From Azolla caroliniana (Eukaryota; Plantae; Polypodiophyta): 61,196 nt of DNA. The first letter of the stretch is position 1. Every line of letters starts with the position of its first letter. The translations under genes were made by a program, and so were the position numbers. The stretch lies in assembly GCA_043228905.1 (NCBI GenBank), contig JBHGNT010000174.1:1-61196 (forward strand), given 5' to 3'. A model generated the notes under the pieces. The model saw only the letters and a program-made list of their open reading frames with translations. It was not told the DNA's origin and made no database searches. Shown here piece after piece: positions 8,493 to 52,815 of this stretch.

Positions 8493-11400
8493 CTCAACCT
8501 CAAGCTCAACTTCAAGTCGGATTGTTGTGTTAGTGTTTGTCGAGATTTGTAGTCGGCTTCTTCTGGCATCTTCTCGCCTTGCTCGCGCTCCTCGACCCGT
8601 CCGGTTCCGCTTCCCACGACCCCTCCGGCTCTGCGCCTCTTGACCTTCTCGGTCGGCATGTCTACTCAACAGGCCCATCTCAGCTCCGTTGTTGTTGCGA
8701 CTTTGGCGCTTCTTGACCTATCAGTTCCTCCGTGTCGGTGTTGACTTCAGCCGCCTCCTCGTCTGTTTGGCCTTCTCTTGATTCCACTACTCCGAATCGG
8801 CTGCCTCCGATTCGTTCTAACTCTTGTCCGAATTGGTTGTCTACAATTCTTCTTCAACCTTCAGGCCCTTCACCACGTCAGACCACGTCTAGGTCTTGGC
8901 CTTCTTCCTCCGGTCGGCTCTGTCCTTCTTGACTCTACCGTCGTTGCCGCTTGTTCTGACTTTATCGGATGTGCTGACTTCTTTAGTGGACTCAACTTCC
9001 TTTTTCTTCTTGTCTCCCCCTGCCTCAGTCATTTCCTTCTCTCTAGCTGCTTGTCCAGTGCGTTTGCCTATTTTCCTAGTTTCCTCCTTTCTCCCCCTCA
9101 AGGGCGGCATGTCGAGATGCTGAAGACCAAGCATCTCCGAAAAATGTTGCAACTTGTAGGTTCCGAGTGCCTTGGTGAAGATGTTGGCAACCTGCCGATC
9201 CATCTGGACATATCAAAGTTCGACTTCATCGTTGAGGACCCGCTCCCGCACAAAGTGATAATGCACTTGTATGTGCTTTGTCCGAGCATGGAACACAAGG
9301 TTCTTGGCTAGTTGCATGTTATCGCAGTGATAATGCACTTGTTGTTACAGTGGTTTGGGATCGGAGTCGGTACTTCGATCCGGAGGTCTTGCAGCAGCTG
9401 TCGAAGTCATATGGCTTCACAGGTGGCAACGGTAGCACCTCGATACTCAACCTCAGTGCTCGATAGAGCCATAGTCGGCTGCTTTTTGCTACTCCACGCA
9501 ATAGTCGCGCTACCTAGAGAGAACATGTAACCAGAGATGTAGACCGATGATCCAACGCATCATCGTCCCAATCGGCATATGTATATCCGACTAGCTTTTC
9601 GAGTATACCGGTTGTTATAACAGTCCCCGGTCCTTAGTGCCGCTAACATACCTCCGTATTCGGTGTGCACACTGAAGGTGCTCCACTGTTGGCTTCTACA
9701 TGAATTGACTTATCATCCCGACCGAATAGCTGATGTTGGGTCAGGTGATTGTTAATTATATAAGGCTTCCGACAATCTGTCGGAACTGTCTCTCATTGCA
9801 GGCCGGTCCGGAGTCGGGATGAAGCTTGAGGTTCCGATCCAAGGGTGTGGAGACTCGTCGGCAATCCGTCATACCAAACTTATAGAACATATTCAACACA
9901 TAGTGTCGTTGTGAAAGCAATATGTCGTAGGGGGTATGGATCACTTCGATCCTGAGGAAATAATGAAAGTCACCCAGGTTCTTCATTTTGAATGCATCCA
10001 ACAATTGGGACTTCACTCGGCTGATTTCAGCAAGTCCGGTGATGACTAGATCACCTACATATAGCAGGATACATACCAGACCTTTCTGGATAAATAGTGA
10101 AGAGTCTGACTTCGAGGCCGCAAACCCCATCTTACACAACTGGTGCATGATCTTCGAATTCCAAGCACGGGGAGCTGGCTTTAGGCCGTGAAGGGACTTT
10201 TTGAGTTGGCACATTGCCGATTGAAAACCGGGGGGTTGGATCATGCAGACCTGTTCTTCAAGGTCACCTTGAAGAAACGCATTCTTCACGTCCATTTGGT
10301 GAAGATGGCACCCCCTTGTCGCAGCAACTGCCAGCACCACACGAATCGTTGTCATCTTCGCTACCGGAGTGAAGGTCTCGTCATAATAGATTCTGTGGGT
10401 TTGCGCATACCCTTTGGCCACTAACCGGGCCTTGTACCGGTTGACCGAACTGTCGGCATTGTACTTCACCTGGAAAACCCACTTCCAGCCAATCGGTTTA
10501 CAGTGTCGGGGAAGGTCAACCAATTCCCATGTGTCGTTGGCATCAAGTGCCCAAATCTCTTTCTCCATAGCGGCACGCCATTATGCATCCTTTTCTCTTC
10601 TGCATAGCTCTCCGGCTCACGCACTTCTGCCACTTTTGTCATGTACGCATAGTGATGCACCATGTACTCATTGTACCCATACCGTTTTACGGGGTTCTTC
10701 TGGCGGGTGGATTGGCACAACTTCTCATTTGCCGATTTCAAGGCCCTCTTGGTCGGCTTGGACTTTGTTCCCGAAGGTCCGTCTTTGTTCTTTCCGGAGT
10801 TGTTCTTGCTCCAATCTGACTCTTCTCTGTCGATGTCATACTCCAGCATCTTCTTCATCCCCTTCTCTTTGCGTGTGAACAGTTTCCTTGGTTCCTTACA
10901 CAGGGAGAGCACAGCCGAGTCTCCACTACTCGTCGACTCTTCATCTGACTGGTTGTTCCAACTCAATCGCTCATTCGGCCCACTTAGCCGGAATGAGATC
11001 GGACTCTCGTCTAGAGTACCAAATCCTTCTTCATCTTCTGCCTGTATCAATTGAGGCTCACTAGCCTCATCTTCCAGAATCTGGTCAGAATTGGGGGTCA
11101 GAGTCTTTCGAAAGTACCATGATGCCGACTCATCAAATTCGGCATCTCAGCTCACTCGAACTTGTTTTGTTCAGGGGATATAGCACTTATAACCCTTTTG
11201 TTCATGTGAGTAGCCAACACTGATACACTTCTGCGACTTCGGGTCCAACTTTCTCCGCTTCTCATCCGGCACATGCACATAAACAATGCTACCGAATACC
11301 TTGAGGTGTCTTAAGTTCAGCTTCCGCCCGAAATACAGTTCATGTGTTGGCACCTTGTCCCCGATCTGGTTTTGGATGTAGACAGCCATTTGGACCACTT

Positions 11401-11938
11401 CGGCCTAGTAGAACTTGGGTATGCTCTTCTCTTCCAGCATTGCCCGTGTTGCCTCCACAATTGACCAATTCTTCCTTTCGGCCACACCGTTTTGTTCTGA
11501 TGTGTATCTACAACTGAATTCCCTCTGAATTCCTTTCTGTTGTAGATAACTGTTGAATAGGCTAGAAAAATATTCTTTTCTGCCATCTGACTACAGGCAC
11601 TTGATTTTCCACTCCGTTTGCCGTTCCACAAGACTTTGCATGTTCTGGAAATAGTCGAAAAATTCGCTTTTCCTTTTGATCAGGTAGATCCATGTGTGCC
11701 GGTTGTAGTCGTCGATGAAGGAGACGAAATATCGACACCCGCCAAGACTAACGTTCTATGCCGGTCCCCATACATTTGAATGTATCAAGTCGAGCTTGTT
11801 ACGGGTTCGGTTTATTTCGGTGAGGAACGGAAGCCGGTGTTGCTTCCCGAGTTGGCACGCTTCGCAAATTTGAGCCTTTCAACCACTAAATTTCGTCAAT
11901 CCGAAGACAACCTGTTTCAATTGCAAGTCTTGAAGCCT

Positions 11939-12533
11939 TGTTATCTGTGGGACAAAGGTTATGAAGTGTGGAACAAATCTAAAAGAAACGAGTAGGTAAA
12001 GGTAGGTGAAAAGGAGAATCCATCGAGCATGAAGGAAGTACCGAATGAATTACGCACAACTGAGAATAAAGACCAGAAAATCAGAGAGGTGGTTGAAGCG
12101 CGCTAAGAAGAACCAGAAACTATAAAAATCCAAGTAGTAGTAGTAGGAACGGAGTGTGGGCAAAGAGAGATGTTTGTATACCTTTAAGAGAGGGAGATAC
12201 TCCTATTATACTAGGCAAAGAGAATTATATATGTATGTCTACTTTTTTCCTGTTAGAGTGAATAGAAATTTCGGCCCTAAGCCGTGTAATCGTTTATGCA
12301 GTAATCTTATAATACACAATTGTGGGCCTATCTTTTCGTGTCATTAAACATTCATCTTTACTATTGGGTTTTTTGTCCGAGTTATAAGTATAAATCATAA
12401 GACCGGTTGTGGCCGGCCATTTTCATAGTCGATCGGTATGTTCGGCCCTATTTTTCCGTTGTACGTAACCACGATTCCTTGACCCGATTACCAAGGAAGT
12501 AATCGGAGGTGTATCTCCAAACAAGACATAACA
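11939..12533 (+). repeat. 5' LTR (595 bp)
   Basis: TGTTATC...CATAACA. TATAAAA at 12121 and ATTAAA at ~12343. Repeated with scattered substitutions at 18948-19547. Confidence 0.95.
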
Positions 12534-15500
12534 CAATTTGGCAGGCCTGGTTCACGTTGTGCAACACAAGGAACAACGTAGGAAGAAACCCCCAACCGCA
12601 CCACGCGTTCTCAACTACCATCCCGCAGTGTCGAGCCAACCGAGGAAACTTCCGACTCCGCGCTCACAAAGCAATCATTGCCGGAGCCACCGGAGTCACA
12701 CCACTCGCCATTAACGGCACTAGACACCCAGTCGCACATAGGCTCTGTTCCCGTTGCACCCTCGAGCCCCCCCGAAGTTAACGAAGCTGAATACAATCCC
12801 TTTCCGGTGTTACCAAAAGACCTGGACTTCGACACCATGTCATAACCATATCCCCATTATATAGATTGTCCCGATGCGGAATCCCACATCCGCTCTTTTC
12901 TGTCCACTTGGCAAGCCAACCATTCAATGCAGCGTCTCACCACTCTAGAGATCGATGCATCCAAGATCTCGGAGTTCACACTAGCCCTCGATGGACCCGC
13001 TACACGGTGGTATTCCCACAACGATCCGAGGGAGTTCACGACATTCTAGGATGTCTACACCCACTTCCTTGGACTTTTTCACCGTGAGATACCCAAGCGA
13101 GAATTGCTCCGCCAATTCTACACTATTGCACAGGAACCGAACGAAACGGTTTCTTAGTTCACGCTCCGATTTCAGGATCTCTGTCGGCAACTCACGCGGG
13201 ATGTGTCGACCAATCATTTAAAAGAAACATTCCTTGCCGGACTCCGGGAGCCTCTACGAACAATGCTCGCCTTGACCGATTTTCACAGCAAACCATCAAG
13301 CAGGTGGTCGCTCGCGTCTTACCTTTGGACAGAGCACACCATAGCAATTCTTTCTCGATGGGCTCTCTCCAAAACACCTTGCCAACACAAGAAGAAACCC
13401 AGTTTAGGCAGGCTCTTCAATGCACAACGTGCTCGAACTCTGGCCACTTGGTCGTGGATTGCCCTTGGTGCACACTGCCCGATCTACCATTCTCAGGTAC
13501 ATACGATCGAGCGATGTGAATACAATATGGTTAATCGTAGAGCCTTTGCTCCTGTACGATAGATTGAACCACACCACGATCGCCCTCAACAAGATGATCG
13601 TCCTCCACCTCGGAATAGGGACGCCGAACGGTCGCGGTACAACGATCGGCATCACCGTGAAGAAGGTTATCGACCCAAGCCAGATCGCTTTCGCCAGGAT
13701 AACCAGTACCAACCTAAGGAGCTGCGTTATCGGTCAGATAATCGACCTCGACCCGAGGACAACTGCCACCGATATCGCAACGAACGTTATCATCCAGACA
13801 ACGACTATTATCGATATGATTACAACCTGGAGGATTACTATGAACCAAGATATCAAAGTCATGACCCTCCATGCCCCAATATTTGACAATCCCCCGCACA
13901 CTCCGAGTCTCTAGAAAACACTCCCCGCGCACAACCCTACGCCTCGTTGGCTTGAAAAGAACACCGCTGACAACATCAAACATCTCAGTTCGAGCACGGG
14001 GAATCCAACAACTCGGCACCGGTGACGTGCTTTAATTGTAACCAACCGGGGCATTATGCCACCCAGTGCCCAACAAATGATCGCAGAAAAGCACCTCTAA
14101 TAAATATCATTATGGCTGACGTCCAACAAGTCACCACCCAAAGTAACGCCCAGAAAACACAATGGGAAATACAGGACAAAGTCGGGCAAGCTGCCAAGCA
14201 ATGGATAGAGACAGAAAATCACGCAAACACCAATAAAATGCATACCGAGATGAAAGATATCACTATTTGTCCATCAGCCTCCTCTCAACCTACCGGGTCG
14301 ACAGACGATGACCCTGTTTGGCAAGCCCTCACAAGCTGCCAAAGCTCCATGCCCTTGCATAAGATTCTACAATTACTTCCACGATTGAAGGACATAGTGG
14401 TATCCCTAACAACCGGCAAAGAGCCAACCACCCTGCTAATACACCTTGCCAAGCCGGGCGTAGGTCCACCATTAATGAACTCCCAGAACCCCGCGGTTAA
14501 GCTCATGATCAAAGGGCGAGATGTTCACATCTGCATTGTCGATGGTGGCTCCAGTGTCAAAGTTATCAGTGAGGCCACATGTCATGACCTCAGCATCACC
14601 CGATGGGAGCCATGTCCATTCTGGCTTCGAATGGCGGATACCCGCTCGGTTCGACCAATGGGGTTAATTCCACACCTCGATTTTATCCTTGGAGGCCACA
14701 CCTTCACAATCTCAACGGTGATGTTACGCCTCGATTCTCTCAGTGCGTACCCAATACTGCTCGATCGTCCGTGGTGGCACACGACTAAGATTAAGGACCA
14801 CTGGCAGAGGAATATGATCTCGTTCCGACGCAATAAAACCAAGGTTTGTGTCATCACAAAGGAATGGATCGCTACACCTCAAGACACCACTCTGTTATAT
14901 GCCGAACGAGTCCACATGCTCGCCGGACTTGCCCATGAAGAAGTTGACCACTTCCTGGAGGAACATTCGACGATTGTCCCTTTGTTTGAAATCAATGTCC
15001 TCACGGTTGTTAGACCGTACGTATCGGAGCCAGCCACTGAAGAGAACGAGGTTCATCAAGAACCTGATCCAACGTTCATTGATGAATTACGGCATGCTCA
15101 CGATGCACCTGACCGTGAATTGGTGATTTCTCAATGAGTGAGGGCATCCAAACTAGAGGATATCAATCTTGGCTCCTCCATTGAGCCACATACCCTAAAA
15201 AACACAAAGGAACTATCTTGTGACAAACGTTCAACCTTGGTTGGACTACTCACAAAATGCCAAGATATGTTTGCTTGGTCATACAACGACATGAAGGGGT
15301 TATATCCCCAATACTATCAACACCAGATTCATCTTCAGCATGATGCACGACTAGTACAGCAACACCGCTACCGCATGAATCCCAATTACGCGGCCAAAGT
15401 AAAGGACGAAATCGACAAACTCCTTCAAGTAGGGTTCATTCGGCCAGTTAAACAGGCAAAATGGTTAAGCCCTATTGTCGTCATCCCGAAGAAAAATGGT

Positions 15501-16899
15501 CAAATACGGGTCTGTGTTGACCTTTGCAAGCTGAATGCAGCAACCGTCACAAATGCCTTTCCTCTTCCGTTCACAGATGGAGTGCTTGACGCGATGGCCG
15601 ACCATGAATATTATAGTTTTTTAGATGGTTTCAACAGGTATAATCAACTCCACGTGCACCACGACGACCGAGAAAAGACAGCATTCATAACAAAATGGGG
15701 CATTTTCGTGGTAGTCGTCATGATGTTCGGATTAAAGATGGGGTCGGCTACCGTCCAAAGATTTATCGCCGAAATTTTCGAAGATTACATTGCGGCCTTT
15801 ATGCAAGTCTTTCTCGATGATTTTGTCATGTACGGCTAGCAGATTGAGCACCTCGGTTACTTACGCTTTTGTCTTGAGCGATGCCGGCAAGTTCGGCTGA
15901 GCTTAAACCCTGCCAAGTGTGCATTTTACGTGACGAGTGTAGGCCATCTTGAATGCTCCAGCCCCGACCATAGCAAAAGCTCTCAATCGGTTTCTGGGCC
16001 AAATTAGATGGCACAATCAAATGTTGCGTTACCTGGCCAAATTCGTGACACCCTTGCACGTAGCGGTCCATCGGTTCTATTTCGATGGTCAGCAATGGCA
16101 GAAGACGCTTACTAATCCCTTAAGGTAATGCTATCACATGCACCGGTGATGCAACCTCCCAACTGATCACAACCCTTCCACGTTTTTGTTGACGTGTCGA
16201 ACGTGGCCATCGGGAGTGCCCTCATGCAAAAGACGCCTCCAAACTGGTATCAACCAGTATATTATGCTAGCCAACGTCTCTCGATAGCCGAGAAGAATTA
16301 TTCGACAATGAAACATGAGGCACTCGGCATGGTATACAATACAACAAAATTTCGACACTATCTACTCAGGCCGAAAATTTACATTCAATGTGGATCACTT
16401 GGCGTTACTATACCTCGTCAACAAGTAGGCACTAACTAGCCGATTGACACGGTGGATGTTACTACTCCAAGAATTCGAATTCGACATACACCATTGGGTA
16501 GGCGTGCAACATGTGGTGGCGAACTACCTAAGTCGACTCGAATCGGGGGAACCAACGGAAACAGTATATGATGATTCAAGCCCGACGGCTATCTCTTCAG
16601 TATTGATGCGGCCACAACACATACCAAAAGCAAGGACGAATGGATACATGACATGATGCACTTCCTAAACACCGGACTTCCACCCGACCATTTGACTTAG
16701 ATGCCAAGAAATGGTTGGCAGTCCGTTGCCAGAATTTTTGCCTGTTCGCGGAAACACTCTACTACAAGGGCTCGGACAACGGTGTGATAGTTCCAAAAGG
16801 ATGCAATCCTACGGAAAACACATTATGGAATCGCCGGCAGGCACTATGTCAAAGACACCACGGCTCGAAAAATTTGGCAAAGTGGGTTATGGTGGTCGA

Positions 16900-18856
16900 G
16901 GACCGGCAACTAGTCATCACACCCGAAAAGACAGTGGCAGTGGTTACCAACAAGGCTTTAGCCTTAACAGGACACATAGAGCAAGGGCAACCTTCCTGTT
17001 TCTTAGAGGAGGAAGTACTGACCTTCACAGACCTGCTGTTAAGTCTTACGAGCTTGGCGCAATCTTAAAATACGGCACAACATACGAGCTCATCGACTTC
17101 CTAGCTCGCCTCAAGGTTGCTGCCACAGCCCGCATGGCTCAAGATCATGCCGGACAACAGATGGTCGAGCGAGCATTAGCCAACGAGCTCGAATCAAATG
17201 AGGAGCCAAAGCTACAAAAAGTCGGACGCAAGCGAGTTACCAAAACATGTCGAGCACGGATCGAGCTACCTGAGCTCAACACGGCGTTGGTCGAAGTCTA
17301 TCGTGAACTGGAAAAAAACCACTCGCGTGGCCAAAGATATGGATGTCAGCAACAAACAGGCACGCAAACAGGCGAAAACGACCACGGAGTTATGGCAGGC
17401 CTCGGAAAGCCGCCTGACTGAGCTTCAACAACAGCTCCAAGAAACAAGCGGACCCAACCTTCTCGCGTTACCACCCCCTGGTTCCACTCTTATCAAGGTA
17501 TACACACAAACAGACGAAACACACCCTCTCGAACCTGTGGAGGAGTTCACTCAAATTGACAAGCCAACCGACTCTGTACTAGCCATAGTCGCGACCAAGG
17601 TCCCAACCCGCAACTATGATGAGGAGCTCGCAGTCCAAACGGCAATTGTCGACAAGGCCAAGGAGTGATACAAAGAGTCTAGAGCCAAAGCAGACCAACT
17701 CTCGGCACAAGCCACAAAGCGCAAGGCCGAATTCCAACATCTGCTAGACGCACAGACGACCCAGCTCCAGGCCACAGAAAAAAATGCCGCCACGACTCTC
17801 AAGGCCGTGTAGGACCTCGCAGCAACAAAGTTAGCGGAAGCAGAGCAAGAGCATCGAAGGGCACCTTGCCAAACATCCGACGAAGTCGTATCTTTAAAAA
17901 TGAACTCTCGGAACTCCAGATCCACTCAAGTCGGCTCCTTCACTAGTTAGATGAAACTGAGAAGCAACGAGCGGCATTGTCAGAGTCCCTTCACCAGTTG
18001 CAAATCTCCATGACCCTAGAACTCGAATTGCAAATCTCCACAATTCCTCTGACGCTACGACATGCATACACTAGAATCACAACTCGCCAACGTTACAACA
18101 TCGTGTGTGATCCTCAAAACCAAGCTCGAACGGGACGCAGCGAAAGGTCAAGATGAACTAAACACCGTCCGAGCCAAATATGAAATGGGTGAAGCACGAA
18201 TCAAAGCCCTAGTGACCAAGCACCGAGTACGGCTAAATCAGAAAGTCGAGGAGATAGTCACTCGAGGCTGGAATGAATGGTCGGCTCAAGCAGCCGAGTT
18301 ACAAGTCTTCCGAGCAGACGCCGAAAATAAGACAAAAGAGGGTCGTGGTTTCTACAAGATGGATGAGAACAACATCCAAATCCTCCGCAAAGACCTCACC
18401 AAGGAATTCCGCGCCCTAGCACAAATGCACACCACGAAAATCAGACACCTTCTTGAGGAATTCAACGACAATTAGATGTTGTTGAGATTAGATGTGGAAG
18501 CCTATGAACACTAGCACATCCTAGCTAAAAAGGAAGCATAAGCCGTCGCACATGCATCAACAGGCCATGTAACCAAGGAAGCCGCACAGGCACTGAATTA
18601 AGAAGAGGAACCACAGTTGAGAGTAGAAACAGAGAAAGTGGATGCACAGATCATCGAACCACATACAGAGGCAATGGTTCCAGAATCCACGAAGGAGACT
18701 CAAGACCAACAACTCGATATATCGGTCGAGTTACATGCCAACGAGCACACAAATGAAGACCCACCTCAAGAACTGACGTATCCACAATCAGAGGATATCC
18801 TCACAATTTTGGAAGAAGAATGGGGCTACCATAGCGAAGTTTTTTCAACTATATAG
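16900..18856 (+). pseudogene. decayed extra ORF (coiled-coil, E/K/Q/A-rich) of the Gypsy element
   Basis: Successive + strand ORF pieces 16711-17421, 17198-17668, 18062-18475 and 18617-18856 show heptad-like helical composition and no pol motifs. Confidence 0.7.
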
Positions 18857-18947
18857 CATTTCGATTTTTTTTATTTTTTCGATTTCTATTTTAGAAGTTT
18901 TGCTTTGGGGTTCGATGTGCAAGGAAATGTCCCACAGGCGTGCCAAG

Positions 18948-19547
18948 TGTTATCCGTGGGACAAAGGTTATGAAGTGTGGAACGTATCTAAAAGAAGCAA
19001 GTAGGTAAATGTAGGTGAAAAGGAGAATTGACCAAGCGTGAAGGAAGTAGTCGAATGAATTAAATGCAGCCGAGAATAAAAACCGGAAAATCAGTGAGGT
19101 GGTTGAAGCGTGCCAAGAAGAAACAGAAACTATAAAAAAGCGAGCAATAGTAGTAGGAAGGGAGCGTGGGTAAAGAGAGATGTCTATATAGCTTTAAGAC
19201 AGGGAGATACTCTTATTATACTAGGCAGAGAAAATTATATATGTATGTCTATTTTTCTCCTGTTAGAGGGAGTGAATAGAAATTTCAACCGTGAGTTGTG
19301 TAATCGTTTACGCAGTAATCTTATAATACACAATTGTGGGTCTATCTTCTCATGTCATTAAACATTCATCTTTACTATTGGGTTTTCTATCCAAGTTATA
19401 AGTATAAGTCGTAAGACCGGTTGTGGCCGGACATTTTCATAGTGAATCGGCCTGTTCGGCCTTATTTGTCTTTCCTACGTAACCACAATTCCTTGACCCG
19501 ATTACTCAGGAAGTAATCAAAGGTGTATCTCCGAAGAAGAGATAACA
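18948..19547 (+). repeat. 3' LTR (600 bp)
   Basis: TGTTATCCGTGGG...GATAACA followed by TSD AGCCT. Confidence 0.95.
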
Positions 19548-20345
19548 AGCCTTTGATAGTTGACGTGGTCGATCCGCTTCTGCCACAAGTCGATATCTAA
19601 CTCGATTGTTTGTCCTTTTGCGAACAAGGCAGTGCCTACGTCATTGGTGTTGATGATGAACATCCTCCTGTCCCAACACCCTTGCGCGATGATCTGACCC
19701 TCTTCCTCAATGAAGCACCCAAGATGTGTAAACCACACCTACATCCCTTGGTCGATGATCTGCGCGACCAACACCAGGTTCTTCATGATTGTCAGGATGT
19801 GAAGCACATTCATAAGCTTCCCTTGTTGTCTGACATGACTCAAGGGGACTTCTCCAACATGCACGATCGGGTGAGGAATGTCATCTCCGGTTTCGACAAC
19901 TCCCGATTTTTCCGGTTTTTCCAAATATGAGAACCACTCTTCATGGCTCGTCATATGGTTGGATGCTCCAGAATCAATGTACCACACTTCCTCTGATCCG
20001 GAAGTGGTCTTGTTCATCGAGTTCGCTTTGTGTTTCATCACAAAGGCTGGCCCTTTTCCAGTCTTACCGGTTGTGGATCCTTCTAATCCTTCTGTGTAGT
20101 GGGAGCTTTGCCAGTTCCCTTGTCCGGCCTTTCTAGATCCGGATTTATCCGAATCGGCACGCTTCTCCAGCAGTACCAACATTTCATGCATAGTTGCTCT
20201 GGTCGAGCTTTTCAGTAGGAAGCGAGCTCGCCATGCTTTTGTCCATATCTTCCCTCTTTTCGGTCTGTGCTTTCAGAAGTTAGGGTTCGTCTATGGAAAT
20301 CGTTTGTCGGCAATAGAGGTTCTCAACCCTTGCATTCTAATACCA

Positions 20346-33956: not shown

Positions 33957-36578
33957 TCTGTGTATTAAGTTTGGCTTTGAAATCTGTCAAGCAACAAAAT
34001 ATGGGACCCAACCATTTTCCTTCTCTTCCTGTCGGGTACCCCTTATGGCGTCCTGTTGCGATCATTTGCTCTCGTAAATGGCATTAGTATGAGACACACG
34101 ACGGACAAATGCATCCTATGTTGTAAGCCCCCTAAAAACAGAAGGTTTTTGTCAATTTGTCTTTTCAATCTGCCTCACATTCTTCTGGTTGGGTTCATTT
34201 CATACGAAAGAAAGAATCTCATGTGAACTCACATAGTAAGTGTTTCGGCTTCATTAGTGAGGCGTTGATGAGTTCTGGAATCTTTTTGTCATGGCTATTA
34301 GCTAAAATTGTTAAGTGAGGCAAGTCATGTGTGACTCCATTTTCTATACAAAAAACAGAAGGTCCTATAGAATCTTTTTCAATATGCTCTTTCTTTCTCT
34401 TCTGAATGTAATATATTGTTTACTAAAGCCTTTTGGAAGCTTTTATTATTAGATAAAATGTTGGATACATACACGTACTTTGACAAGGAGATGATGCTGA
34501 CAATACCTTCTTGCAAGATGACATGGCAAGCATCATCATTCCCTCGCTCAATGACTTTTCATGTGTCTTGAGCTCATCTAGCACTGATTGTGTCATCCTA
34601 CAATTTAGATATAAACATGTTTTGAAGCCCTCTCTCGTATCTCACTCTTCATTATTTCCTACATTTTTTTTACCCATCGATTCGAATACATGAATAAGTG
34701 CCTTAGACTGTACTTTTATACTCATGAATTACAAAGTGATGCTACAAAGAATGGTGTAAACAAGGAGAAATTTGGGCATTGATAGCCATTCATTTTGATC
34801 GTGTGGCAATGAGAGGCCACAAAATTTCAATAACATTTTAATAACATGTCAAACACCCCCAATGAATATACCACATGATCATGTAGTATTTAATTCCCAT
34901 TTTTCACATCAAAGCAAAGTAGTTGAAATATTGAGGCTTGTCAAAGGATATTAAGGCTGACAACTTGGTACCTAGTCATACGATGACATAATTTGGGCAA
35001 AGCACAATGAATCACCCTACAAAACTTACAATGTTACTAAGTCCCCCACAATTTCCGAGTGGTCCATGTGGTTGCAAATCTTAAATGTATCATGACTCAT
35101 GCACTATCATAGTTGACATTCAATGCCATACAACACCAATTTAATACAAAGAAATTGAAAACATGAATCATGAATTCAATCATAGAAATTTGCCATGTAG
35201 TTGAGGTTGAAATGATTGCTATAATCCAATCATCAAAGATGATGTTCTTGTTCCAATTAAAACTACACCAAAACCCTAAATGAAACAATATGTCAAATGT
35301 AGGAACCACCGTGCACAATGGGTTTTGATTACCACCAGCATTATTGACAGTATAAATTTGATGAGGTTGTTAAAAGTAATCTCTTTTTGCCGGTTGATAG
35401 TGTGACTTACTCGAGTATAAACATAATTTGCCCCACGAATAATAAGTAACCAATGATAGCAAGATTGACCTTTGAAATGACAATCAAACCAACCTTCAGC
35501 CTTTATAACAATGAAGGTGTACATCAAGGTCATTGACGGTCTTTATATCCTCGACATAATATTCACCCGCCCAAATTCTGTAACATGGAGTTCAACAATG
35601 AACACACCAACAAAACATGGAAAACGTGATGCATTCAATTGACAACTATAGATTCACAATTGATTATATGGTATAATCAATTGAATGAATGATTACCTAA
35701 CCTAACCCCCCCACCCCGACAATCAAATGCAATGTGATGTACAAGTTGCAACTACTAATTGTTAGTCAAATGTAAAATGTTCACATCATGCATCAAAATA
35801 TGAAGTCATTCATCAAATATATGCTACCTTCTTATATGTAGAAACATGTTTCTCAAAGAGTATTCCACGGTCATCATGATTTCTTGTTGTCTACGGGTGT
35901 ATAGCTCTAAGATACGAGTTAGCAATGTTTCAATATATATATACATATCTATATATTTCATTACTCTCTCCAGTCTCAACATCGTACTCAGTTCACAATC
36001 TCTTCATACAACGAGTAATGCCATACGCTGCAACCTTCACTCCAACATAACATTAAATTTTAAGTGAACATGCCATTAAATCAGAACCCATTTCACAAAA
36101 AACTAAATATAGAGTCTAATGTGATATTTTCACCTTACAAATCAATGCCCTATTGAAATTCATAGGCATCATATTACATTCACTTGAATCATTTGCTGCG
36201 TATTGGAAATGCCAATAAATATGATAGATATACACAATGACTGAAGTAGGATAACAATGTGGATTCTAATGTCATGTTCACCTACAAAGTGTGATGCCAT
36301 ATTGAATTGGCATTGGTTGCCATTATAGATGGTGTACATAATCTTTCGTGTAGTATAACAATGTAAGCCTAATATGATATTTCACTCCAAGAGTAATGGC
36401 ATATTAAATTTTTATCACATGAGCTTTTTAGTATTGGCATTGTTGAGAATAAGACATCGGATTATATATTTTACACATAGTTAAAACAATTTTTGTTGGC
36501 CATTTCAATTTGCCATTACAGATTTAATAGATTTACAGAGTCTATTATCAAGAATCATAACTTTTTTACCATAACATG

Positions 36579-39500
36579 CTAATTTGGTGAAGCGTTCTTG
36601 CTATAGTCCTTAGCAAATATCGCAAATCTGTCGAGATCTTTCTGGAGAATGCTCTCAACCAACGGTGATACAGACTGCAAGGATTATAATAGACACAAGA
36701 ATCTTTTTTCATCAAAATCTAAACATTTGCTGAAATTACGAAGCTCTAAATCAGGGAGACAAATCAATTCCATGGGGTGAAGTAAGATTGAAAAATGAGT
36801 ATACCGCGAGTAAAGGAGCCAACACATCTGGTACCTCATATGAAATGGTTAGCTGCAACTCATTTATTTGATCATATCAAAATCTTCTTTCTCTAATTTA
36901 GGGCACAAAAATCTCTCAAGAAGTCTTTGTAACAACATTTACCTGAATTACTACAGATGATGTACCTCGGGGATAAAAACGAACAGTGCCCCTGATATAA
37001 TAAAACCCAAACAAAGATTTTAATTTTTTTGAAATATTTGCATAATACTCTTAAACAAACTATGCTATATCATTTTAATATTTTTTATATACATAGATAT
37101 TTTCATTTTCCACATTTCAGAACATTTAGAGAACAGAACCCAGCAGAGAAGCAATACAAACGATTGGATACAAATTAATGCTATTAAATCAAATTAATCA
37201 TGATTTACAAGACACGTTTAGAGAGTAAACTCTCATCATAACCTATATCCCCCAAAGAGAGGCCTATTGGGGTTTGGCTAGATGTATAACAAAATATTTT
37301 TGTCCTTTCTAATATTCTGCAGAGATAGAGCTGAAGAACACTCTGAGATCCTTTTTTCAATCTTGTATTAGATCAGGACAAGTACGTCAGAAAATCCAAG
37401 GTCAGCAGTGCTTGAGGCAATGACTCGTAGAAAAAATAGAGCTACTTTTATATCTGATTGATTTAAACTGAAAATTAACTTACATTAACAGATAGAAATT
37501 TGGAGTACAGCATATGCAGTCTTTTTTCTTTATCTCATGTAAAATTAACAATAGAACAAGTGTACTTGTTTGGTAAAACGAAATGGTGGTTCCATTTTCC
37601 ACCATCAGCAAAAAGCAAGTCTAAATTATGATCAGTGCTACTGCACTGGCATTACCTCTGTTATTGTTATTGCTGAGAAATAATAACATGACATTAGAAA
37701 TTTTGGTTTAAAAACTAGTATAGGATATGCTTGAACCTGTTCTGTAGGCCATCCATAGATCGCCAATGAATCTTCTGGTGATAAATGGGCTATAAACAAA
37801 ATGACAAATGAATCAGATGTACTCAATCCTCACTTAAAAAGTCTCTAAATTAATCGCCAGTAACAACTGGTGTCCGGTAATAAATATCCTTAAGTATGGA
37901 TATATACTCAAACTGCTCTAGAAAATGACATGGTTTGTGCATAGAAAAATCTAATATTTTACGATCTTCCATCTAGCATGGAGAAATATGTTTCTTGAAA
38001 ACAATCACATTTATGCAGTGACCAGAGGGTCAAGGGCCAGATTGTCGGTTAAGGGACGAATTGATGAGATTCTGTAGTTGGGAGGTGCATCACATGTCTT
38101 CTCCTTAGGATTGTTGTTCCGCTTGTGTATGGCTTGTAGTACATCATGTGCACAGATCCTAAAACCTAGTGCCATGAAAGAGAGACCGTAGCAGAAGGAA
38201 AGAGTAATGAAAACACACAAATGTATAAACAAACCTATATTCACAAAAAATGAGAACCTCCTGAATGTCCTACATATAAAGGGTGAGACTAAGAGTGCAT
38301 GAGCGGCCTAGAAAGCTCGATGCTCAAAAATGAGTTGTTGAATGCATAAGAGGGAAAATGAGGCACCCTATTTTTATTTAATAGGGCCAGGGCAGCTAAC
38401 CTGTCCAAGAACACAACTAGTGTGAAATGTTATAATCATACTATTAATAGCAGAAACAATATGCGGAGAGGTAAAACAAGATGTAGCCCAAGTTGCTAAC
38501 ACTGATGCTCATGACAAGCAAAATAACAAGCCTTTTCCCTCTACTGAAATGGCATTACCTGTAAATTCTTTGCAGTCCACTTGAACTCAAAATCTTGTCC
38601 AAATGTACTATACTTCAATACCCATTCAGATATTTGAGGGTTATCCTTCGAAACCTATATATCCCATTCAATTATGTTTCATTGCCATGCATACCCACAA
38701 AGACTTAGAATTTCAAACAATCTGAAAGGCATATATCACATACCTTAATAGAGTGAATCCATGGCATCCAACGATTAATTCCCTCTTTATCAGACCAGAG
38801 ATCCCAAGCCAAGGAGAGAGGTACTGCAACTTCAACTTGAGCACTGCAGATCATAAGAATATACTTGTAAACGTTTAATAGTCATGGTAACTTTTAAAAA
38901 TTTTATTATAAGAAAAACAGCCATACAATATGCTTCATGTGCAGCACATGAATACATTTAGTAAATCTAGATTGCAAGTGGTCAGTTCCAGGTGAGGCCA
39001 AAGCCCGTGTATTTCCCTAGGCATTGCTTCATAAATATTCATAGTAGAAAAAAAAGCTATTTATACACTCTTCCTTTCCTACTATTTAAATATTATATTA
39101 GAAACAAGAACTGTCAAAGCAATGTAACAACCCCGAAGCCGTAAGTTCACAATGCATTCAACTGCATTGAGTGCAAACATTATAGGATTGATGCCCCCAA
39201 AACAAGTGTTTCACATGTGCCATTGGTGCATTGATCCCAAACCAAGTTTGCCTCCCAATACCTGTTCACCCTAATGTTGAACTACACATTTCTTTTAGCA
39301 TAACCATGAAACTTGCTGAAATAGCAAAATTCTTGCCGCCATCCATGTCAGAAAGTTTTTGCCCTCTTGCCTTTTTTGGAGGGAGAGGTGTCCATGTTTC
39401 AACTGTGACTAGTTGCATGAATAATCAAGCACATAACATGTCTAGAGATTGCTTGAGTGCAAATAGATTGTCAATGGACATGTCTAGAGATTCTTCATGT

Positions 39501-42500
39501 AAACAAGCAATTTACCCTAATACTGAAGTACGCAGTTCTTTTAGCATAACCATGAAACTTGCACAAATAGCGAAATTCCTGCCACCATCCATGTTGAAAA
39601 GTTTTTTCCCTTTTGCCTTTTCTTTTGGAGGGAGAGGTGAACATGTTTCAATTGTGAATAGTTGCGTGAATAATCAAGCAAATAGCATGTCTGAAATTTC
39701 CTTGGGTGCAAATAACCACCCTCACACTAACCAATGACCGCCTAACAATGATTAACGTACAATATCAAGATAGAAAGCATATGATTAACAATCATTATTA
39801 GTAGCAGTAGAAAAGTACTAAAGATAGAAAGAAATGGCAACGGATGGCTTTAACTACACATTTCTAAATGTAACAGATCAGTTTGATGTTGATGTAGATC
39901 TTGCCTTTGTTTTCCTACTCACATAGCTGGGGTGTAATGTCAGAGGTCGAAGAGATCAACACATCAGCGTGCTCTGGGATTGCCCACTTTGACCCACAAT
40001 TTTTGTCTATTCTATTCAGCCATAAACACCTGTAAAGTATTATGTCCACATACATGGTCATGGTTGCAATTGCAAAATGAGCATTCTCCTTTGATTTATT
40101 CTCAAGAGTATACATATATGTTACAACAGCAGAGAGACAGTACAGAGATCGCTTATTAAACATGAGGAGAAGGTTCCTCCTTATAAAGGCCAAGATATGG
40201 CCGTTGGGAGCTGTTGGGGCTGGCTAGCCGTTGGGCTACAACTTTAATCATTCTCAACACTCCCCCTCAAGATGGGCTAAAGATATCCACAAAGCCCATC
40301 TTGTCATCCAGCTTCATCTGACTTTCTTGATTCATCCTTAGTTCTCTTAGAAGAGATTTCAGACACAACATCTCTGCAACTCCAATAGCTCTATACTCTG
40401 CTTCTGCTGTTGACCTTGCTACTATCAACTGTTTTTTACTCTGCCAAGAGACCAAATTGCCCCCAACAAACATGCAGTATCCTGATGTGGATTTCCTATC
40501 AACAGCACAACTAGCCCAATTGGAATCACAATAGTCCTCAGTGTTGAAATGACCATGTTTTCTAAAGATCAATCCCTTCCCCGGTGCACCTTTGAGATAT
40601 CTCAGAATCTGGTACACTACATCCATATGATCTTTCCTCGGATCATGCATGTAGTGACTTACCACATTTGCTACAAATGAAATACCTGGATGAGTGTGAG
40701 TCAGATAAATCAGCCAACCTACCAATCTCTAATACTTGTCACAATCAACTTTCTCTCCAGCAAGTGCAGTTAACTTGATCTTTGGGTCAATTGGAGAAGC
40801 TAAAGGCCTACAACCCAACATTCCAATCTATGTGAGAAGATCAAATACATATTTTCACTGAGATGGAACTCCTGCCCCACGAGCTACCTCAATTCCAAGA
40901 AAATATTGTAGCAAGCATAGATCCTTCACCTCAAACTCTTTACCCAGTTGCACCTTCAATCGAGCAATCTCTCCTTCATCATCACCTATGATAATTATAT
41001 CATCCACATACACAGCAAGTAATGTAGTATACTCCTTGTGTTGTCGGAAAAACACTGTATGGTCCGCATTGATCTGTTGGTATCCCATACCCACCATAGC
41101 CCTTCTTAACCTGTCGAACCAGGCTCGAGGAGACTGCTTCAGTTCATAAAGCAACTTCCTTAATCTGCAAACCTTGCCTACTTTTTGAATTGTACCAAAA
41201 CCTGGGGGGATATCCATATACACTTCCTCCATCAACTCTCCATGAAGGAATGCATTTTTTACATCTAATTGATATAATTTCTAATCCTGATTCACGGCCA
41301 AGAAAGAAGGAAAGAAGAAAGATATACTAATGTCTTTTAAGAGGCCAAAATGGCCTATAAGACCAAATAAGAGATTACATCTTGAGTGTTGTCACGTCTT
41401 TGAGAACAAATCAAAATAAAATAAATATTACACAGTAAATATAAAAGTAAATAAGATGAAAAGAGAAGAAACGAGGGAATCTGGTTTTTGGCACATGTGA
41501 GATTCTCAAGTTAGGTATATTGTAGCTTTTGTCTTCGAAAGATCTCTAGCATAGGTCGATCCAAAATAGAAATGTCTCCGAAGCGAGGGAAGCACCTACG
41601 ATGGCGGGAGATAATGGCTTTCATCTGTCGATGAAAAGAGTGTTGAGGTCATGGTCCATGGGGCCGGGGCCTATGTGCACGGCAAATTGCTATTGCCCGA
41701 TCAATTGTAACCCCTTTGTTATGTCCTGGTCTGGAGCCCATTTGTGTATCCCATGATGGACTTGTAGCATTAGTAGGAGTGATGGGGCTAAAGAAAGTTG
41801 TGATTGTTCTTTGTGGATGAGCTTGTGTGGTTGTATTCTTCAACAACTTTTCTCAATGTCTCTTGAGCTCTAGCAAGAAAAGTCCTAGGCATCGTTGGTC
41901 CTCATATTCCATTACCTTGCGTAGTGGGCCAAAGCCTTGTTTAAAGTGGCAATGGTATCTCCCTCTGATTTCATAAAAGACACTACAATGACAAACATAG
42001 TGTTCCTCAGATTCCACTCCTTGATGACACAATTGGTAAATTCTCTCTTCTAGAGGTAGTCGCTGCCTAGCCTTGTTTAAAGTGGCAATGGTATCTCCCT
42101 CTGATTTCATAAAAGACACTACAATGACAAACATAGTGTTCCTCAGATTCCACTCCTTGATGACACAATTGGTAAATTCTCTCTTCTAGAGATAGTCGCT
42201 GCCTACCTCAATCTATAGCTGATGTGATGAAGTTCGCAACTGCCCTATCACACTACACAACGCATAGGATAGATGTATGTCCATATAAGATGGCCTAATG
42301 ACGAATCCATCCTCTGATGTATGTAAGAAGTGTGTCTTATTGTGGGCCATCTTTGTACCAAGTGATATTTTGGGGCTGATCCATGTTATCTTGTTTTCCA
42401 AGTTAATAATATCAGTTCGGATCACTCTATTCTTTTCCACTTTGGTCATATTTGGGTGGGGACAGTCCAAGCTGTATTGGAATGGGGGTAGTGCATTTAT

Positions 42501-45500: not shown

Positions 45501-47555
45501 AAGCCAAGTATACAAAGACATGTGGGTAGCTCTCCATGCTTCCCACTCACTACTCATTTTAACAAGAAGCTCTTTCTCTTCTCTTGTTAGATAGCCATCA
45601 ACACCTCTCCTTGCTAACGCGCCCGTAACCCGACGCGACCAACTCAGGTACATGGCCAATCCATTGAGTTTGAACTCAACTAGAAGGAATTCAAGTCTAG
45701 GTGATGGTTGTGTTCCCATCACACCTCCAGATGCTACAATCTCTGTTTACTTCATGTATTTCACCAATGTTTTCACCTCATCCTCGTTCAATTTTGACAA
45801 TGCCTTATCCATCTTCTCAATCTAGACTATCTCTTCTCTTATCTTCTAACTTCTTTTTCCATGTCACCTCTCAACCACATAGCATTGTCATCCTAACAGA
45901 AGAATCCTCCCTACCTCTCTTGGATGTTACGACAGTGCTGTTCTAACTGCTGTCGCACCGGCAGAGGGGTGAATCTAGGGTTTGCACAGCTGCAGGGGAC
46001 CAACGAGCAGCAACTCACTCTGATACCAAACTGCAAAATGAACATTCTCCTTTCATTTCTTCTCAAGGATATACATATATGTTACAACAGGAGAGTGAAA
46101 GTACAGAGATCGCTTATTAAAAATGAGGAGAAGGCACCTCCTTATAAAGGCCAAGATATGGCCGTTGGGCTAACTAGCTATAAGGGCTGGATAGCCATTG
46201 GGCTACAACTTTAATCATTCTCAACAGTTGCTAGTGCTTCGGAGACAAAAAATGTGCTATAATGACAAGCAATAATGATGGCACAAGTCACATGCAAATA
46301 AAAGTTGTGGAGGGGAATTTGAAATACAGTGTATAGGCTTTGGTTGGTTGTGTTCCTTGGTCCACGTAGGAGCAGGTGGAAAGGAAGGATGTCGAATTGT
46401 GGTGGTTACAAATAATAGGTTAGTCTTCTTAACAGCTATTGAAAAGGTACAGAGCATGTGGCATCCAGGGAGGGGTTGATGGACTGAAGGTTATTGTTAG
46501 TATCTTGATTTGTAGACAAATATAATACTTAACATGGGATTTAAGCCTCCTTGAAGTGATGTTTTGCATTAAAGGTGGGTAAAGTCTCAGCCAGGGATAT
46601 CGAGCAGCAAATATTTTTTGCTTATACTGAGAATACAAGGATCATTTTTCATCCTATTCCAGACCACACCTCGATGTGATAGCTGCAGCAAGGACATTTC
46701 CTCAAGATATGTACGTCAAAACATCGTGCTTTTATTCCTAAGCTTCTATAGTGGGTGTTCAAGGATTGGTGAGATGTGCCGGTAATCGTCCAGCAACATG
46801 AGTAAGACATCAATCTGACGATTGCATGGCTCCAATTGTTGTCCAATGCAACTTGATCAGTGATCACGTAGTGCCGTCAGCCATGGAGGATCAAAAGATG
46901 GTGACTTAGGTGCCAAAATACAAGAAAAAGGTGATGAGATTCAACTTGATCACTTCATCAAAGAAGCCCAAGTCAGGATGACACCATCAAATGCCACACC
47001 ATTGCTACTGTCATACTCTATGGCTGCTACTGTGCTGATTCTTCTTTCTATTGTATCATCTAGTTAGATACAGGCCACAGTGGGTTGTGTATGTATTTGA
47101 AATTTTCTACATTTCTTGTTTTCATAAAAAGGAAACAAAAATCTAAAACTTATACTATATAAACCATTTTGCTGATGCTTGAATCAGGATTCTGATGAGA
47201 CAAAAAGAAGGTTTTGAATCATTTTTGCTGAAGTTTGTATCAGTACCATGATGAGACAAAACTAATGTTTAAAAGAAGGCGAAAAGAACAGATGAACATA
47301 CCTGCTATCAAGCCATTGACTAGCGGTCCAGCGAGTTCCATTAGAGATCCAAATTAGTCCGTCCTTATCCTTCTTCTTATTCTTCTTCATCACCGTCATC
47401 TTCCGATTGGAAGGAGACCGTAGACCTGCAGAAACAGGGTGTGATAGATCCAGGGGGGCTGTAGTGCTTGGCCATGAGGAGAGGTTTGTGTGCAGAATTG
47501 AAGGGATGGGCTGTAATGTGGTTAAGCCAGAAGAAGCTGTGAGCATGGAAGCCAT
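36579..47555 (-). CDS. SRPBCC/START-fold polyketide cyclase/dehydrase-like lipid-binding protein with probable plastid transit peptide, copy A; 7 exons, ~231 aa
   Basis: Exons on -: 47555-47302, 38843-38744, 38654-38559, 37789-37737, 36991-36943, 36852-36805, 36674-36579. Spliced product ..QWLDSSAQVEVAVPLSLAWDLWSDKEGINRWMPWIHSIK..FKWTAKNLQPIYHQKIHWRSMDGLQNRGTVRFYPRG..LTISYEVP..DLDRFA, as in the Arabidopsis At1g02475-type and cyanobacterial SRPBCC family. S/T-rich N-terminus. Intron 1 is 8.4 kb. Confidence 0.88.
39150..39712 (-). pseudogene. highly decayed retroelement-like relic (possibly L1 zf-RVT) with an internal ~190 bp duplication; also present in copy B (57480-58032)
   Basis: Fragments FLTWMA and VKHLFWG on the - strand. 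Block CATGAAACTTGC..GGGAGAGG is duplicated at ~39305 and ~39551. Confidence 0.3.
41303..43174 (-). mobile_element. 5'-truncated non-LTR retrotransposon (LINE) inserted in the Copia RT
   Basis: RT thumb motifs GLSINMDKTKVMVF, YIYLGVTF and LFDTLVTPTLLY. C-terminal ERI.QLCHQGVESEEHYVCHC zinc motif. (TTTC/TTC)-type tail at 41303-41322. CCAAG on both sides (41298-41302, 43175-43179) where the Copia frame RTLISL|AVNQD is split. Confidence 0.9.
41933..42205. repeat. 136-bp tandem duplication inside the LINE
   Basis: AGCCTTGTTTAAAGTGGC...CGCTGCCTA at 41933 and 42069, nearly identical. Confidence 0.92.
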
Positions 47556-47650
47556 TGTTGGGAAATGTCTGATCAGAAGGACATACACATCATCATCATC
47601 ATCATCATCATCATTGGTCATCACAACACTAACCAAATCATACATACATA

Positions 47651-50831: not shown

Positions 50832-52815
50832 TTGCCAAGGGGTTCTTCGACAAAAGGTTCCTTCAACAAGAGGTTTCCTCGACAAAGGCTTTCTTCGGCA
50901 AAGGTTTCTTCAACTAAAGGTAGCCTTCGAAGAGCTAGAGTCATCGATGTACACATCTTGTGGACTTGGAGACACTTTGACACCCGAGTCTTTTCGACTC
51001 TTAGATCTTTTCCACCCCATCCTTTCGAGTCCTCCTAAACTTTTTGATTCCCTAGTCCAAGACCCCGGTGTTTCTGCTCAGGTAGCACATGCACGAGCGT
51101 TTATGCAACAACGTAATACCCATAGTCGGTCCTATTGGGTTGTGTTGGGATGTGGAATTTGTGATGTGTTCCCTCACTTAGGATGCAATGGCCTCCACGC
51201 ATGCTACATATCCGATGTATACCATGATATGCGAAAGTCTTGAAGGAAAGGATTGCCAAATTATTCAATGGATCGCAAAAGTCTACAAGGTTGGTCACCT
51301 TCTATGCATCCACCCCGGTTGGACTATTGCCAAGGGGTTCTTCGACAAAAGGTTCCTTCAACAAGAGGTTTCCTCGACAAAGGCTTTCTTCGGCAAAGGT
51401 TTCTTCAACTAAAGGTAGCCTTCGAAGAGCTAGAGTCATCGATGTACACATCTTGTGGACTTGGAGACACTTTGACACCCGAGTCTTTTCGACTCTTAGA
51501 TCTTTTCCACCCCATCCTTTCGAGTCCTCCTAAACTTTTTGATTCCCTAGTCCAAGACCCCGGTGTTTCTGCTCAGGTAGCACATGCACGAGCGTTTATG
51601 CAACAACGTAATACCCATAGTCGGTCCTATTGGGTTGTGTTGGGATGTGGAATTTGTGATGTGTTCCCTCACTTAGGATGCAATGGCCTCCACGCATGCT
51701 ACATATCCGATGTATACCATGATATGCGAAAGTCTTGAAGGAAAGGATTGCCAAATTATTCAATGGATCGCAAAAGTCTACAAGGTTGGTCACCTTCTAT
51801 GCATCCACCCCGGTTGGACTATTGCCAAGGGGTTCTTCGACAAAAGGTTCCTTCAACAAGAGGTTTCCTCGACAAAGGCTTTCTTCGGCAAAGGTTTCTT
51901 CAACTAAAGGTAGCCTTCGAAGAGCTAGAGTCATCGATGTACACATCTTGTGGACTTGGAGACACTTTGACACCCGAGTCTTTTCGACTCTTAGATCTTT
52001 TCCACCCCATCCTTTCGAGTCCTCCTAAACTTTTTGATTCCCTAGTCCAAGACCCCGGTGTTTCTGCTCAGGTAGCACATGCACGAGCGTTTATGCAACA
52101 ACGTAATACCCATAGTCGGTCCTATTGGGTTGTGTTGGGATGTGGAATTTGTGATGTGTTCCCTCACTTAGGATGCAATGGCCTCCACGCATGCTACATA
52201 TCCGATGTATACCATGATATGCGAAAGTCTTGAAGGAAAGGATTGCCAAATTATTCAATGGATCGCAAAAGTCTACAAGGTTGGTCACCTTCTATGCATC
52301 CACCCCGGTTGGACTATTGCCAAGGGGTTCTTCGACAAAAGGTTCCTTCAACAAGAGGTTTCCTCGACAAAGGCTTTCTTCGGCAAAGGTTTCTTCAACT
52401 AAAGGTAGCCTTCGAAGAGCTAGAGTCATCGATGTACACATCTTGTGGACTTGGAGACACTTTGACACCCGAGTCTTTTCGACTCTTAGATCTTTTCCAC
52501 CCCATCCTTTCGAGTCCTCCTAAACTTTTTGATTCCCTAGTCCAAGACCCCGGTGTTTCTGCTCAGGTAGCACATGCACGAGCGTTTATGCAACAACGTA
52601 ATACCCATAGTCGGTCCTATTGGGTTGTGTTGGGATGTGGAATTTGTGATGTGTTCCCTCACTTAGGATGCAATGGCCTCCACGCATGCTACATATCCGA
52701 TGTATACCATGATATGCGAAAGTCTTGAAGGAAAGGATTGCCAAATTATTCAATGGATCGCAAAAGTCTACAAGGTTGGTCACCTTCTATGCATCCACCC
52801 CGGTTGGACTATTGC
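50832..52815. repeat. tandem array of four apparently identical 495-bp units
   Basis: Units start at 50832, 51327, 51822 and 52317, and the ORF track repeats with exact 495-bp period. The array is closed by TTGC (52812-52815), identical to the unit start. Confidence 0.97.

Follow-up and report, generated by a model that had tools for sequence, protein, structure and literature searches.

Sequence traces of probable host tRNA priming at the polypurine-tract position in a Ty3/gypsy clade of Azolla

How does a long terminal repeat (LTR) retrotransposon start its second DNA strand when the sequence that usually primes it is missing? The question is raised by an LTR retrotransposon found on the + strand, at positions 11939-19547, of a 61,196-nt stretch of Azolla caroliniana DNA (hereafter, the window). 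In canonical LTR priming, as in yeast Ty3, a tRNA at the primer-binding site (PBS) primes the minus strand and a polypurine tract (PPT) that withstands RNase H primes the plus strand, the latter step being regarded as general to LTR retrotransposons and retroviruses alike (PMC5371799); elsewhere the PPT is described as a usual, not a universal, feature (PMC6317226). The window element carries, at the PPT position, a sense copy of the 3' end of tRNA-Arg(UCU). This motif is real, conserved and clade-wide, and the comparative evidence set out below suggests that host tRNA-Arg(UCU) quite probably primes the plus strand from this mirror-image site, which replaces the PPT.

The ends of the element were found as the original prediction had listed them. 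The LTRs are direct repeats of 595 bp (5', 11939-12533, TG...CA) and 600 bp (3', 18948-19547), identical at 520/600 positions (87%; Kimura two-parameter distance 0.14) and flanked by a matching pair of target-site duplications (TSDs), AGCCT at 11934-11938 and at 19548-19552, with gag-pol on the same + strand. A 5-nt spacer, CAATT (12534-12538), conserved within the window's family, separates the 5' LTR from a 13-nt PBS for tRNA-Arg(UCU), TGGCAGGCCTGGT (12539-12551), the site of the minus-strand primer. At the other end the T-loop-like GGGGTTCGA occupies 18907-18915, and the box at 18908-18915 within it is identical to nucleotides (nt) 51-58 of tRNA-Arg(UCU). A hairpin of 4 bp with a 3-nt loop follows (18917-18927), its right arm decayed in the window copy, and then, 13 nt downstream of the box, the sense copy of tRNA nt 59-76 with one C deleted, GTCCCACAGGCGTGCCA (18929-18945), which matches the tRNA at 17/18 nt, ends in CCA and sits at the PPT position as a PBS on the minus strand. 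Only a 2-nt spacer, AG (18946-18947), stands between it and the TG of the 3' LTR. Host tRNA-Arg(UCU) genes were located by pattern search and ARAGORN, which upholds the proposal that the PPT position holds a tRNA-Arg(UCU) site in mirror orientation; no tRNA genes were found within the window. The 18-mer originally put forward corresponds to a minor gene variant (L073 and L078, with similar sequences in L070-L072), whereas the main gene (L062, L066, L067, L069, L080) differs from it, matching the window PBS at 11/13 and the 3' motif at 16/18 positions, counting the deletion.

The PPT usual before the 3' LTR of Ty3/gypsy elements is absent from the window's family, in which the last 20 nt held purine runs of 3-4 nt at the longest in the 21 3' junctions measured. 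The predicted lack of any purine run stood for the final 20 nt, but the window copy does hold a 7-nt run at 18921-18927, produced by decay of the hairpin's right arm. Nor is the motif peculiar to this copy. Among 23 other 3' junctions of the family, 21 carry it within 5 mismatches, with no normal PPT among them, and the remaining two are decayed versions; the query behind this count itself contained the motif. With a query made from the LTR end, 5/5 3' LTRs with a visible upstream side carried the motif (3/5 overlap an earlier set), and the 5' PBS followed its 5-nt spacer in 18 other copies among 30 loci. The 17-mer 3' motif joined to the LTR start gave 1,723 exact matches in genome G000 and 0 for a reversed control, so its conservation is not due to chance, and the motif recurred across ~20 LTR-start groups. 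The gap between the T-loop box and the 17-mer holds the 4-bp hairpin, which covaries between families through compensatory changes (GTGC/GCAC, GTAC/GTAC, GGAC/GTCC): 92% of cells were paired, a level reached by 0/500 shuffles and compared with 15-67% in slid controls, scores that are inflated by relatedness among the sequences. These features bear on the idea that a tRNA captured long ago left the motif behind as a neutral relic, with the plus strand primed at a cryptic purine tract. An origin by capture is plausible, since 18 nt is the length that reverse transcriptase (RT) copies from a tRNA, but the motif is near-invariant over unrelated LTR families while its flanks diverge, and together with the covarying hairpin, the fixed distance to the LTR and the absence of purine runs >4 nt in the last 20 nt this makes neutrality exceedingly improbable.

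Since the + strand of the motif has the same sequence as the tRNA, only its minus-strand DNA can pair with that tRNA. The predicted gain from tRNA pairing was -22 to -38 kcal/mol for the minus strand and -3 to -12 kcal/mol for the plus strand; co-folding predicted a three-way junction with its break at A58/G59, and real upstream boxes beat shuffled ones (<=9/200 as good) in 8/9 motifs. Pairing extended to the acceptor stem and T arm is a property of the retroviral primer activation signal, which is RNA-borne and serves minus-strand priming. The bipartite PBSs of Ty1 and Ty3 share such extended pairing with acceptor stem and T arm, but theirs lie on RNA and serve the minus strand (PMC5371799), whereas the Azolla site lies on minus-strand DNA at the PPT position. 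That Ty1 and Ty3 have split PBSs at all (PMC5371799) might suggest that the motif forms one too; a second segment complementary to the tRNA in genomic RNA, which defines the Ty1/Ty3 arrangement, was however not found here, and a motif identical rather than complementary to the tRNA in RNA cannot be part of a split PBS. A related proposal builds on the pairing of the two RNA ends raised in the original prediction: the motif would anneal to the 5' PBS of the RNA molecule that carries it, for circularisation, PBS masking or self-priming. The two motifs are indeed complementary in the window's family (predicted gain -17.5 kcal/mol), but families B and D combine a tRNA-Arg(UCG) PBS with a tRNA-Arg(UCU) motif, and the predicted gain in family B falls to -8.0 kcal/mol. 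These UCG families largely refute end-pairing, which is not needed, and since both proposals also leave plus-strand priming unexplained, we give them hardly any credence. The same families limit the suggestion that one tRNA serves both strands: this fits the window's family, but not its sisters, which keep the 3' motif and use tRNA-Arg(UCG) at the PBS.

Physical traces of the proposed primer came from the tRNA search, which also returned non-gene copies fused to LTR ends and ending in CCA, a triplet that the main genes do not encode. A search for the exact-length 18-mer followed by 2 nt and TGT gave 18 matches, made up of 8 U3-end junctions (5 independent events), 6 U5-side junctions, 3 normal 3' junctions and 1 unclear case. 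An exact copy of tRNA-Arg(UCU), 18-57 nt long and with CCA, is fused to U3 through the family's own spacer in at least five independent insertions. The copy is 57 nt long in family B at G000:C2:12.015 Mb (three duplicates sharing one flank, taken as one event) and 56 nt in family D at C2:12.743 Mb; it is 18 nt long in family D at C11:11.470 Mb, in family C at C16:17.527 Mb (two tandem junctions, taken as one event, flanked by tandem LTRs within an element that has an outer TSD) and in a B-like element at C20:0.881 Mb. In each event the tRNA sequence, rather than the family motif, is followed by the spacer (TG, TATG or AG) and the start of U3, and each leads into an LTR and then a PBS, directly or, at C16, past the tandem LTRs, which places these junctions at the left end of the element. 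The family C case is informative: that family's motif and the tRNA show 3 differences, one of them just 8 nt away from the CCA end, and the junction copy is the exact tRNA. Four of the five events belong to elements whose PBS uses tRNA-Arg(UCG), so that neither a shared tRNA for both strands nor end-pairing is required. Such fusions are what would form if plus-strand synthesis began from a tRNA that was still in place when the minus strand was completed. The 18-nt length matches the stop of RT at methylated A58, and the 56-57-nt copies indicate that long tRNAs, and not just 18-nt fragments, were among the molecules copied. Sequences left out of the U3 count were normal 3' junctions with a 1-nt insertion, whose variants are not tRNA-exact (L105, L112, L118); U5-side copies (L106, L108, L109, L111, L113, L117); and L107 (9 nt of U3-like sequence only), L271 (a chance flank), L305 (a nested insertion) and L399 (a mosaic).

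The two isoacceptors also separate the two ends of the element. UCG 18-mers with CCA were on U5 ends in 30/30 cases examined (the first 30 of 97) and on U3 ends in none, and the first 30 of 64 UCU 18-mers comprised 20 on U5, 4 on U3 (2 events) and 6 left unclassified by the script. Since UCG marks U5 and UCU marks U3 in families B and D, a U3 copy there cannot be the minus-strand primer. All 96 family C and 24 family D junctions matching CCA-spacer-U3 were then read. Normal 3' junctions made up 93/96 and 21/24; two junctions in each family were of tRNA type (3 events in all); and element-type remnants at the left end of the 5' LTR numbered 0/96 and 0/24. The remainder were one chance flank and one motif cut by a nested insertion (L305), the sole short element-type remnant. 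This census bears on the alternative that the element's own motif RNA is an RNase H-resistant, non-purine primer, with the U3 tRNA copies arising by RT template switching or rare mis-priming. The end of such a primer would sit 2 nt before the LTR, as with a PPT, and the hairpin could function in RNA; the mosaic L399 shows switching between tRNA and motif, and in the chimeras L397, L398 and L404 DNA copied from a tRNA has been accepted by the sense motif. However, an element-derived primer should leave element-type remnants at left ends, and 0/120 family C and D junctions had one, against three tRNA-type events. Family C offers just 7 nt of shared sequence for a switch, and the change G53A, common in several groups, would break the T-stem of a tRNA mimic yet keeps a wobble pair with the tRNA. 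The kept identity to one tRNA across families, including the separate T-loop box, would also go unexplained. We therefore consider an element-RNA primer unlikely, and the tRNA-mimic primer offered in the original prediction is likewise disfavoured.

It is also conceivable that an antisense RNA is packaged, in which case the first strand would start from a PBS in the 3' motif and the second from the short 5' site, both strands being tRNA-primed in reversed order. The canonical 2-nt spacer and extended, PBS-like architecture of the 3' site would suit such a role, as would LTR ends that are inverted repeats. Gag-pol and the extra open reading frame (ORF) downstream of it nevertheless lie on the + strand, and tRNA-exact copies joined to the element interior were on the 5' PBS side (L073, L117, L109, L113), whereas normal 3' junctions keep the deleted form (the 1,723 matches). 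This distribution fits a sense-RNA template, and we regard the reversed order as very improbable.

Several observations weigh against priming by tRNA-Arg(UCU) from minus-strand DNA. The pairing energies use RNA:RNA rather than RNA:DNA parameters. Family L131 has no T-loop box, and 38/200 shuffles did as well as its real upstream sequence. Among family-fixed transitions, 5 leave the tRNA and the minus strand able to form G-U/G-T pairs and 0 break the pairing, a weak result (p = 0.055) from a sample partly chosen by exact match, whose 79 junctions included L161 wrongly, with no family-fixed variant altered by this. Part of the UCU 18-mers, the six noted above, escaped classification. The mosaic at C3:8.094 Mb (L399) joins tRNA nt 21-50, 7 nt of the element hairpin and tRNA nt 59-76, which implies that RT can switch between tRNA and motif and so keeps template switching alive as an explanation. 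Finally, tRNA copies on U3 ends arise rarely, when the reaction fails, and may give too much weight to a minor route. With these points taken into account, tRNA priming of the plus strand is still the best reading, and the one for which the genome holds retained-primer traces.

Copies of tRNA at U5 ends are numerous, with 97 UCG and 64 UCU exact 18-mers genome-wide (the UCU figure includes the U3 cases; examples are L061, L073-L077, L079, L176, L177 and L179). Most stop at 18 nt and some are nearly full length; judged from these copies, primer removal fails often in the motif clade. Seven tRNA copies (L106, L107, L108, L110, L111, L408, L410) have C for G at about position 67, a variant for which pattern search returned no gene and which is possibly a misreading of a modified base.

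The two sites and their tRNAs, the loss of the PPT, the hairpin covariation, the tRNA-CCA-spacer-U3 junctions and the RNase H residues of family B are direct observations, and a reaction sequence can be proposed around them. Minus-strand synthesis would begin at the normal PBS from a tRNA, which is Arg-UCU in the window's family and Arg-UCG in families B and D; the sites are seen in the DNA, and priming from them follows established LTR biology. Once the minus strand had been transferred, RNase H would strip the 3' motif of its RNA, and tRNA-Arg(UCU) would anneal to the exposed minus-strand DNA. In the modelled three-way junction, 17 bp form with nt 59-76, one C being bulged, and a further 8-12 bp with the T arm, the 4-bp hairpin being looped out at the A58/G59 break. 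From the CCA end RT would then synthesise across the spacer, of 2 nt (4-5 nt in some families), and on into U3. The primer would normally be removed and the spacer trimmed at integration, as the clean TG...CA ends with TSDs suggest; where removal failed, the minus strand would copy the primer, mostly for 18 nt and sometimes for 56-57 nt, to give tRNA-CCA-spacer-U3 junctions. Taken as a whole, it is probable that this clade has dropped the PPT and primes each strand with a separate host tRNA, the two often being different isoacceptors (Arg-UCG for the minus strand, Arg-UCU for the plus strand), that a three-way junction around A58 serves to load the second tRNA onto DNA, and that the mirror-image sites let an interior be captured inverted and integrated, as at G000:C3:8.087-8.095 Mb.

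At that locus (C3:8087109-8094762; L398, L399, L417, L419), D-like LTRs with a clean TSD, CTTCA, enclose a 6.4-kb interior that is an inverted family B sequence, joined through the exact tRNA 18-mer on the PBS side; its flanks resemble, by eye, a tRNA-Phe gene split at the anticodon. Mirror-image sites appear to make such inversion of an interior possible. Two further chimeras, L397 (C2:18769770) and L404 (C4:14909592), combine the 3' box and hairpin of one family, the exact tRNA 18-mer and the reversed U5 end of another family, and are likely to reflect misdirected second-strand transfer onto the sense motif.

In the RT tree, every motif-bearing sequence fell inside one clade (support 100/99), which includes metagenome contigs and extends the layout seen in the window to related RTs. 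Three contigs outside the clade (L226, L227, L259) have a purine tract before the TG taken as LTR start, which makes it likely that the motif is derived and took the place of a PPT; the nearest rows outside the clade (L211, P0014, P0017, P0019) have unreadable 3' junctions. The motif was present in metagenome contigs at 83-94% RT identity. That scan covered the best 80 of 521 loci, mostly short, of which about 10 reach a 3' junction, and the outer limit of the clade is for this reason loosely set. In four runs with four organism labels (two studies, DNA contigs), contig depth peaked on the 40-nt motif, with the sequence diverging on either side. Viral contigs searched gave 0 motif matches and no RT relatives.

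Apart from plus-strand priming, the clade behaves as a standard LTR element. It shows the Ty3/gypsy traits of direct LTRs bounded by TG...CA, a TSD and a tRNA PBS after the 5' LTR, and the order gag-protease (PR)-RT-RNase H (RH)-integrase (INT), read from Pfam matches on the open frame of family B and from motifs, with the window copy degenerate; the catalytic D, E and D residues of RNase H are present in family B. The family B frame had no chromodomain match at E 0.05, and the RT tree placed the clade apart from chromodomain-bearing matches. An additional archaeal RNase H (aRH) was likewise not found, with no PF00075 or PF13456 match on the 1955-aa frame. By its lack of chromodomain and aRH, its 5-bp TSD and its forward extra ORF, the lineage classifies on sequence characters as a Ty3/gypsy non-chromovirus. 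RT-RH identity was 43-45% to angiosperm matches and ~50% to proteins of Adiantum, Riccia and Marchantia, and in the tree the clade grouped with non-seed-plant and unnamed proteins, beside angiosperm matches that we infer to be Athila.

With plant non-chromoviruses (the Athila/OTA side, Phygy and Selgy) the clade shares the lack of a chromodomain, a 5-bp TSD and an extra ORF after pol (PMC6317226). TatIII, Ogre and Retand share its tRNA-Arg PBS (PMC6317226), but assignment to Tat (TatI-III, Ogre, Retand) was rejected because the clade has no aRH. Phygy and Selgy were rejected because the TSD is 5 bp and not 4 bp as in those groups (PMC6317226), the PBS being for Arg and not for Trp/Thr or Ala. 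Athila elements share an AT-rich spacer before the PBS (bioRxiv 10.64898/2026.03.20.713144) but have an Asp/Asn PBS and, in Brassicaceae, a conserved PPT junction, whereas the Azolla clade has an Arg PBS, no PPT and a forward extra ORF.

The window element itself is an old, broken Ty3/gypsy copy. Its gag (12846-14072) is degenerate, with stops and frameshifts, and retains a zinc knuckle (PF00098) at ~14025-14072; degenerate protease, RT (PF00078 at ~15483-15833) and RNase H occupy 13971-16900. About 1.4 kb is gone near 16895 relative to the copy L093+L094, where the integrase core would lie. Remnants of the forward extra ORF (17180-18857) have no Pfam match and are homologous to a 993-aa open frame of family B (L083:3236-6214), which is forward, charged and glutamate-rich, with no Pfam match and no membrane helix; a search of the ESM Atlas with it gave a best score of 0.79, a lead only. 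Directly 3' of the PBS, a small hairpin-like segment (12552-12572; GTTGTG-AAG-CACAAC in intact family copies) resembles the 3' hairpin. A copia-like element of minus-strand orientation surrounds it on both sides (11317-11938 and 19548-20272; family label by eye), so that the window element is a nested insertion. Element and flanks are ~100% identical to G000:C8:6.675-6.683 Mb (flanking stretch 6.67-6.68 Mb); the window contig therefore duplicates this C8 region and is probably a haplotig or assembly duplicate. Elsewhere the window holds a 495-bp tandem repeat in 4 identical copies (50832-52616) and larger direct duplications at ~90-95% identity (36029-40073 with 54269-58391, and 46277-47561 with 58452-59711).

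How far does this depart from known priming? With canonical Ty3 the clade shares LTRs, a 5-bp TSD, a PBS, the order gag-PR-RT-RH-INT and a plus-strand start ~2 nt before U3; unlike Ty3, it has no PPT, carries in that place a T-loop box, a hairpin and the 3' end of a tRNA in sense orientation, and shows tRNA copies on U3 ends. Moloney murine leukaemia virus can copy a mature tRNA with CCA beside its LTR after failed primer removal (Colicelli and Goff, described in PMC12220202), but there the tRNA is at the U5 end and spurious, whereas in the Azolla clade cognate copies also occur at U3 ends, and the site is conserved. Lineage-wide swaps of a priming signal are known for the minus strand, through self-priming in Tf1, Tcn1 and TAR and half-tRNA primers (PMC6317226) and in Dictyostelium Skipper (PMC5006619), and the Azolla clade shares that character. 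As these sources describe them, however, all concern the minus strand only and none replaces the PPT, Skipper replacing its PBS. In keeping with the original prediction, which knew of no described example, a literature search, covering the subscription literature in part, found no description of a tRNA site replacing a PPT.

The mechanism most likely breaks a rule at plus-strand priming within an otherwise known kind of LTR element, and retained-primer junctions give physical traces to what was a motif-based guess. If host tRNA-Arg(UCU) does prime the plus strand, a natural, high-copy clade would show that primer selection by RNase H can be done without and that RT is able to begin synthesis from a tRNA when the template is DNA. 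Levels of tRNA and of 3' tRNA fragments would then gain a second control point over these elements, and annotation filters that require a PPT would miss a major lineage.

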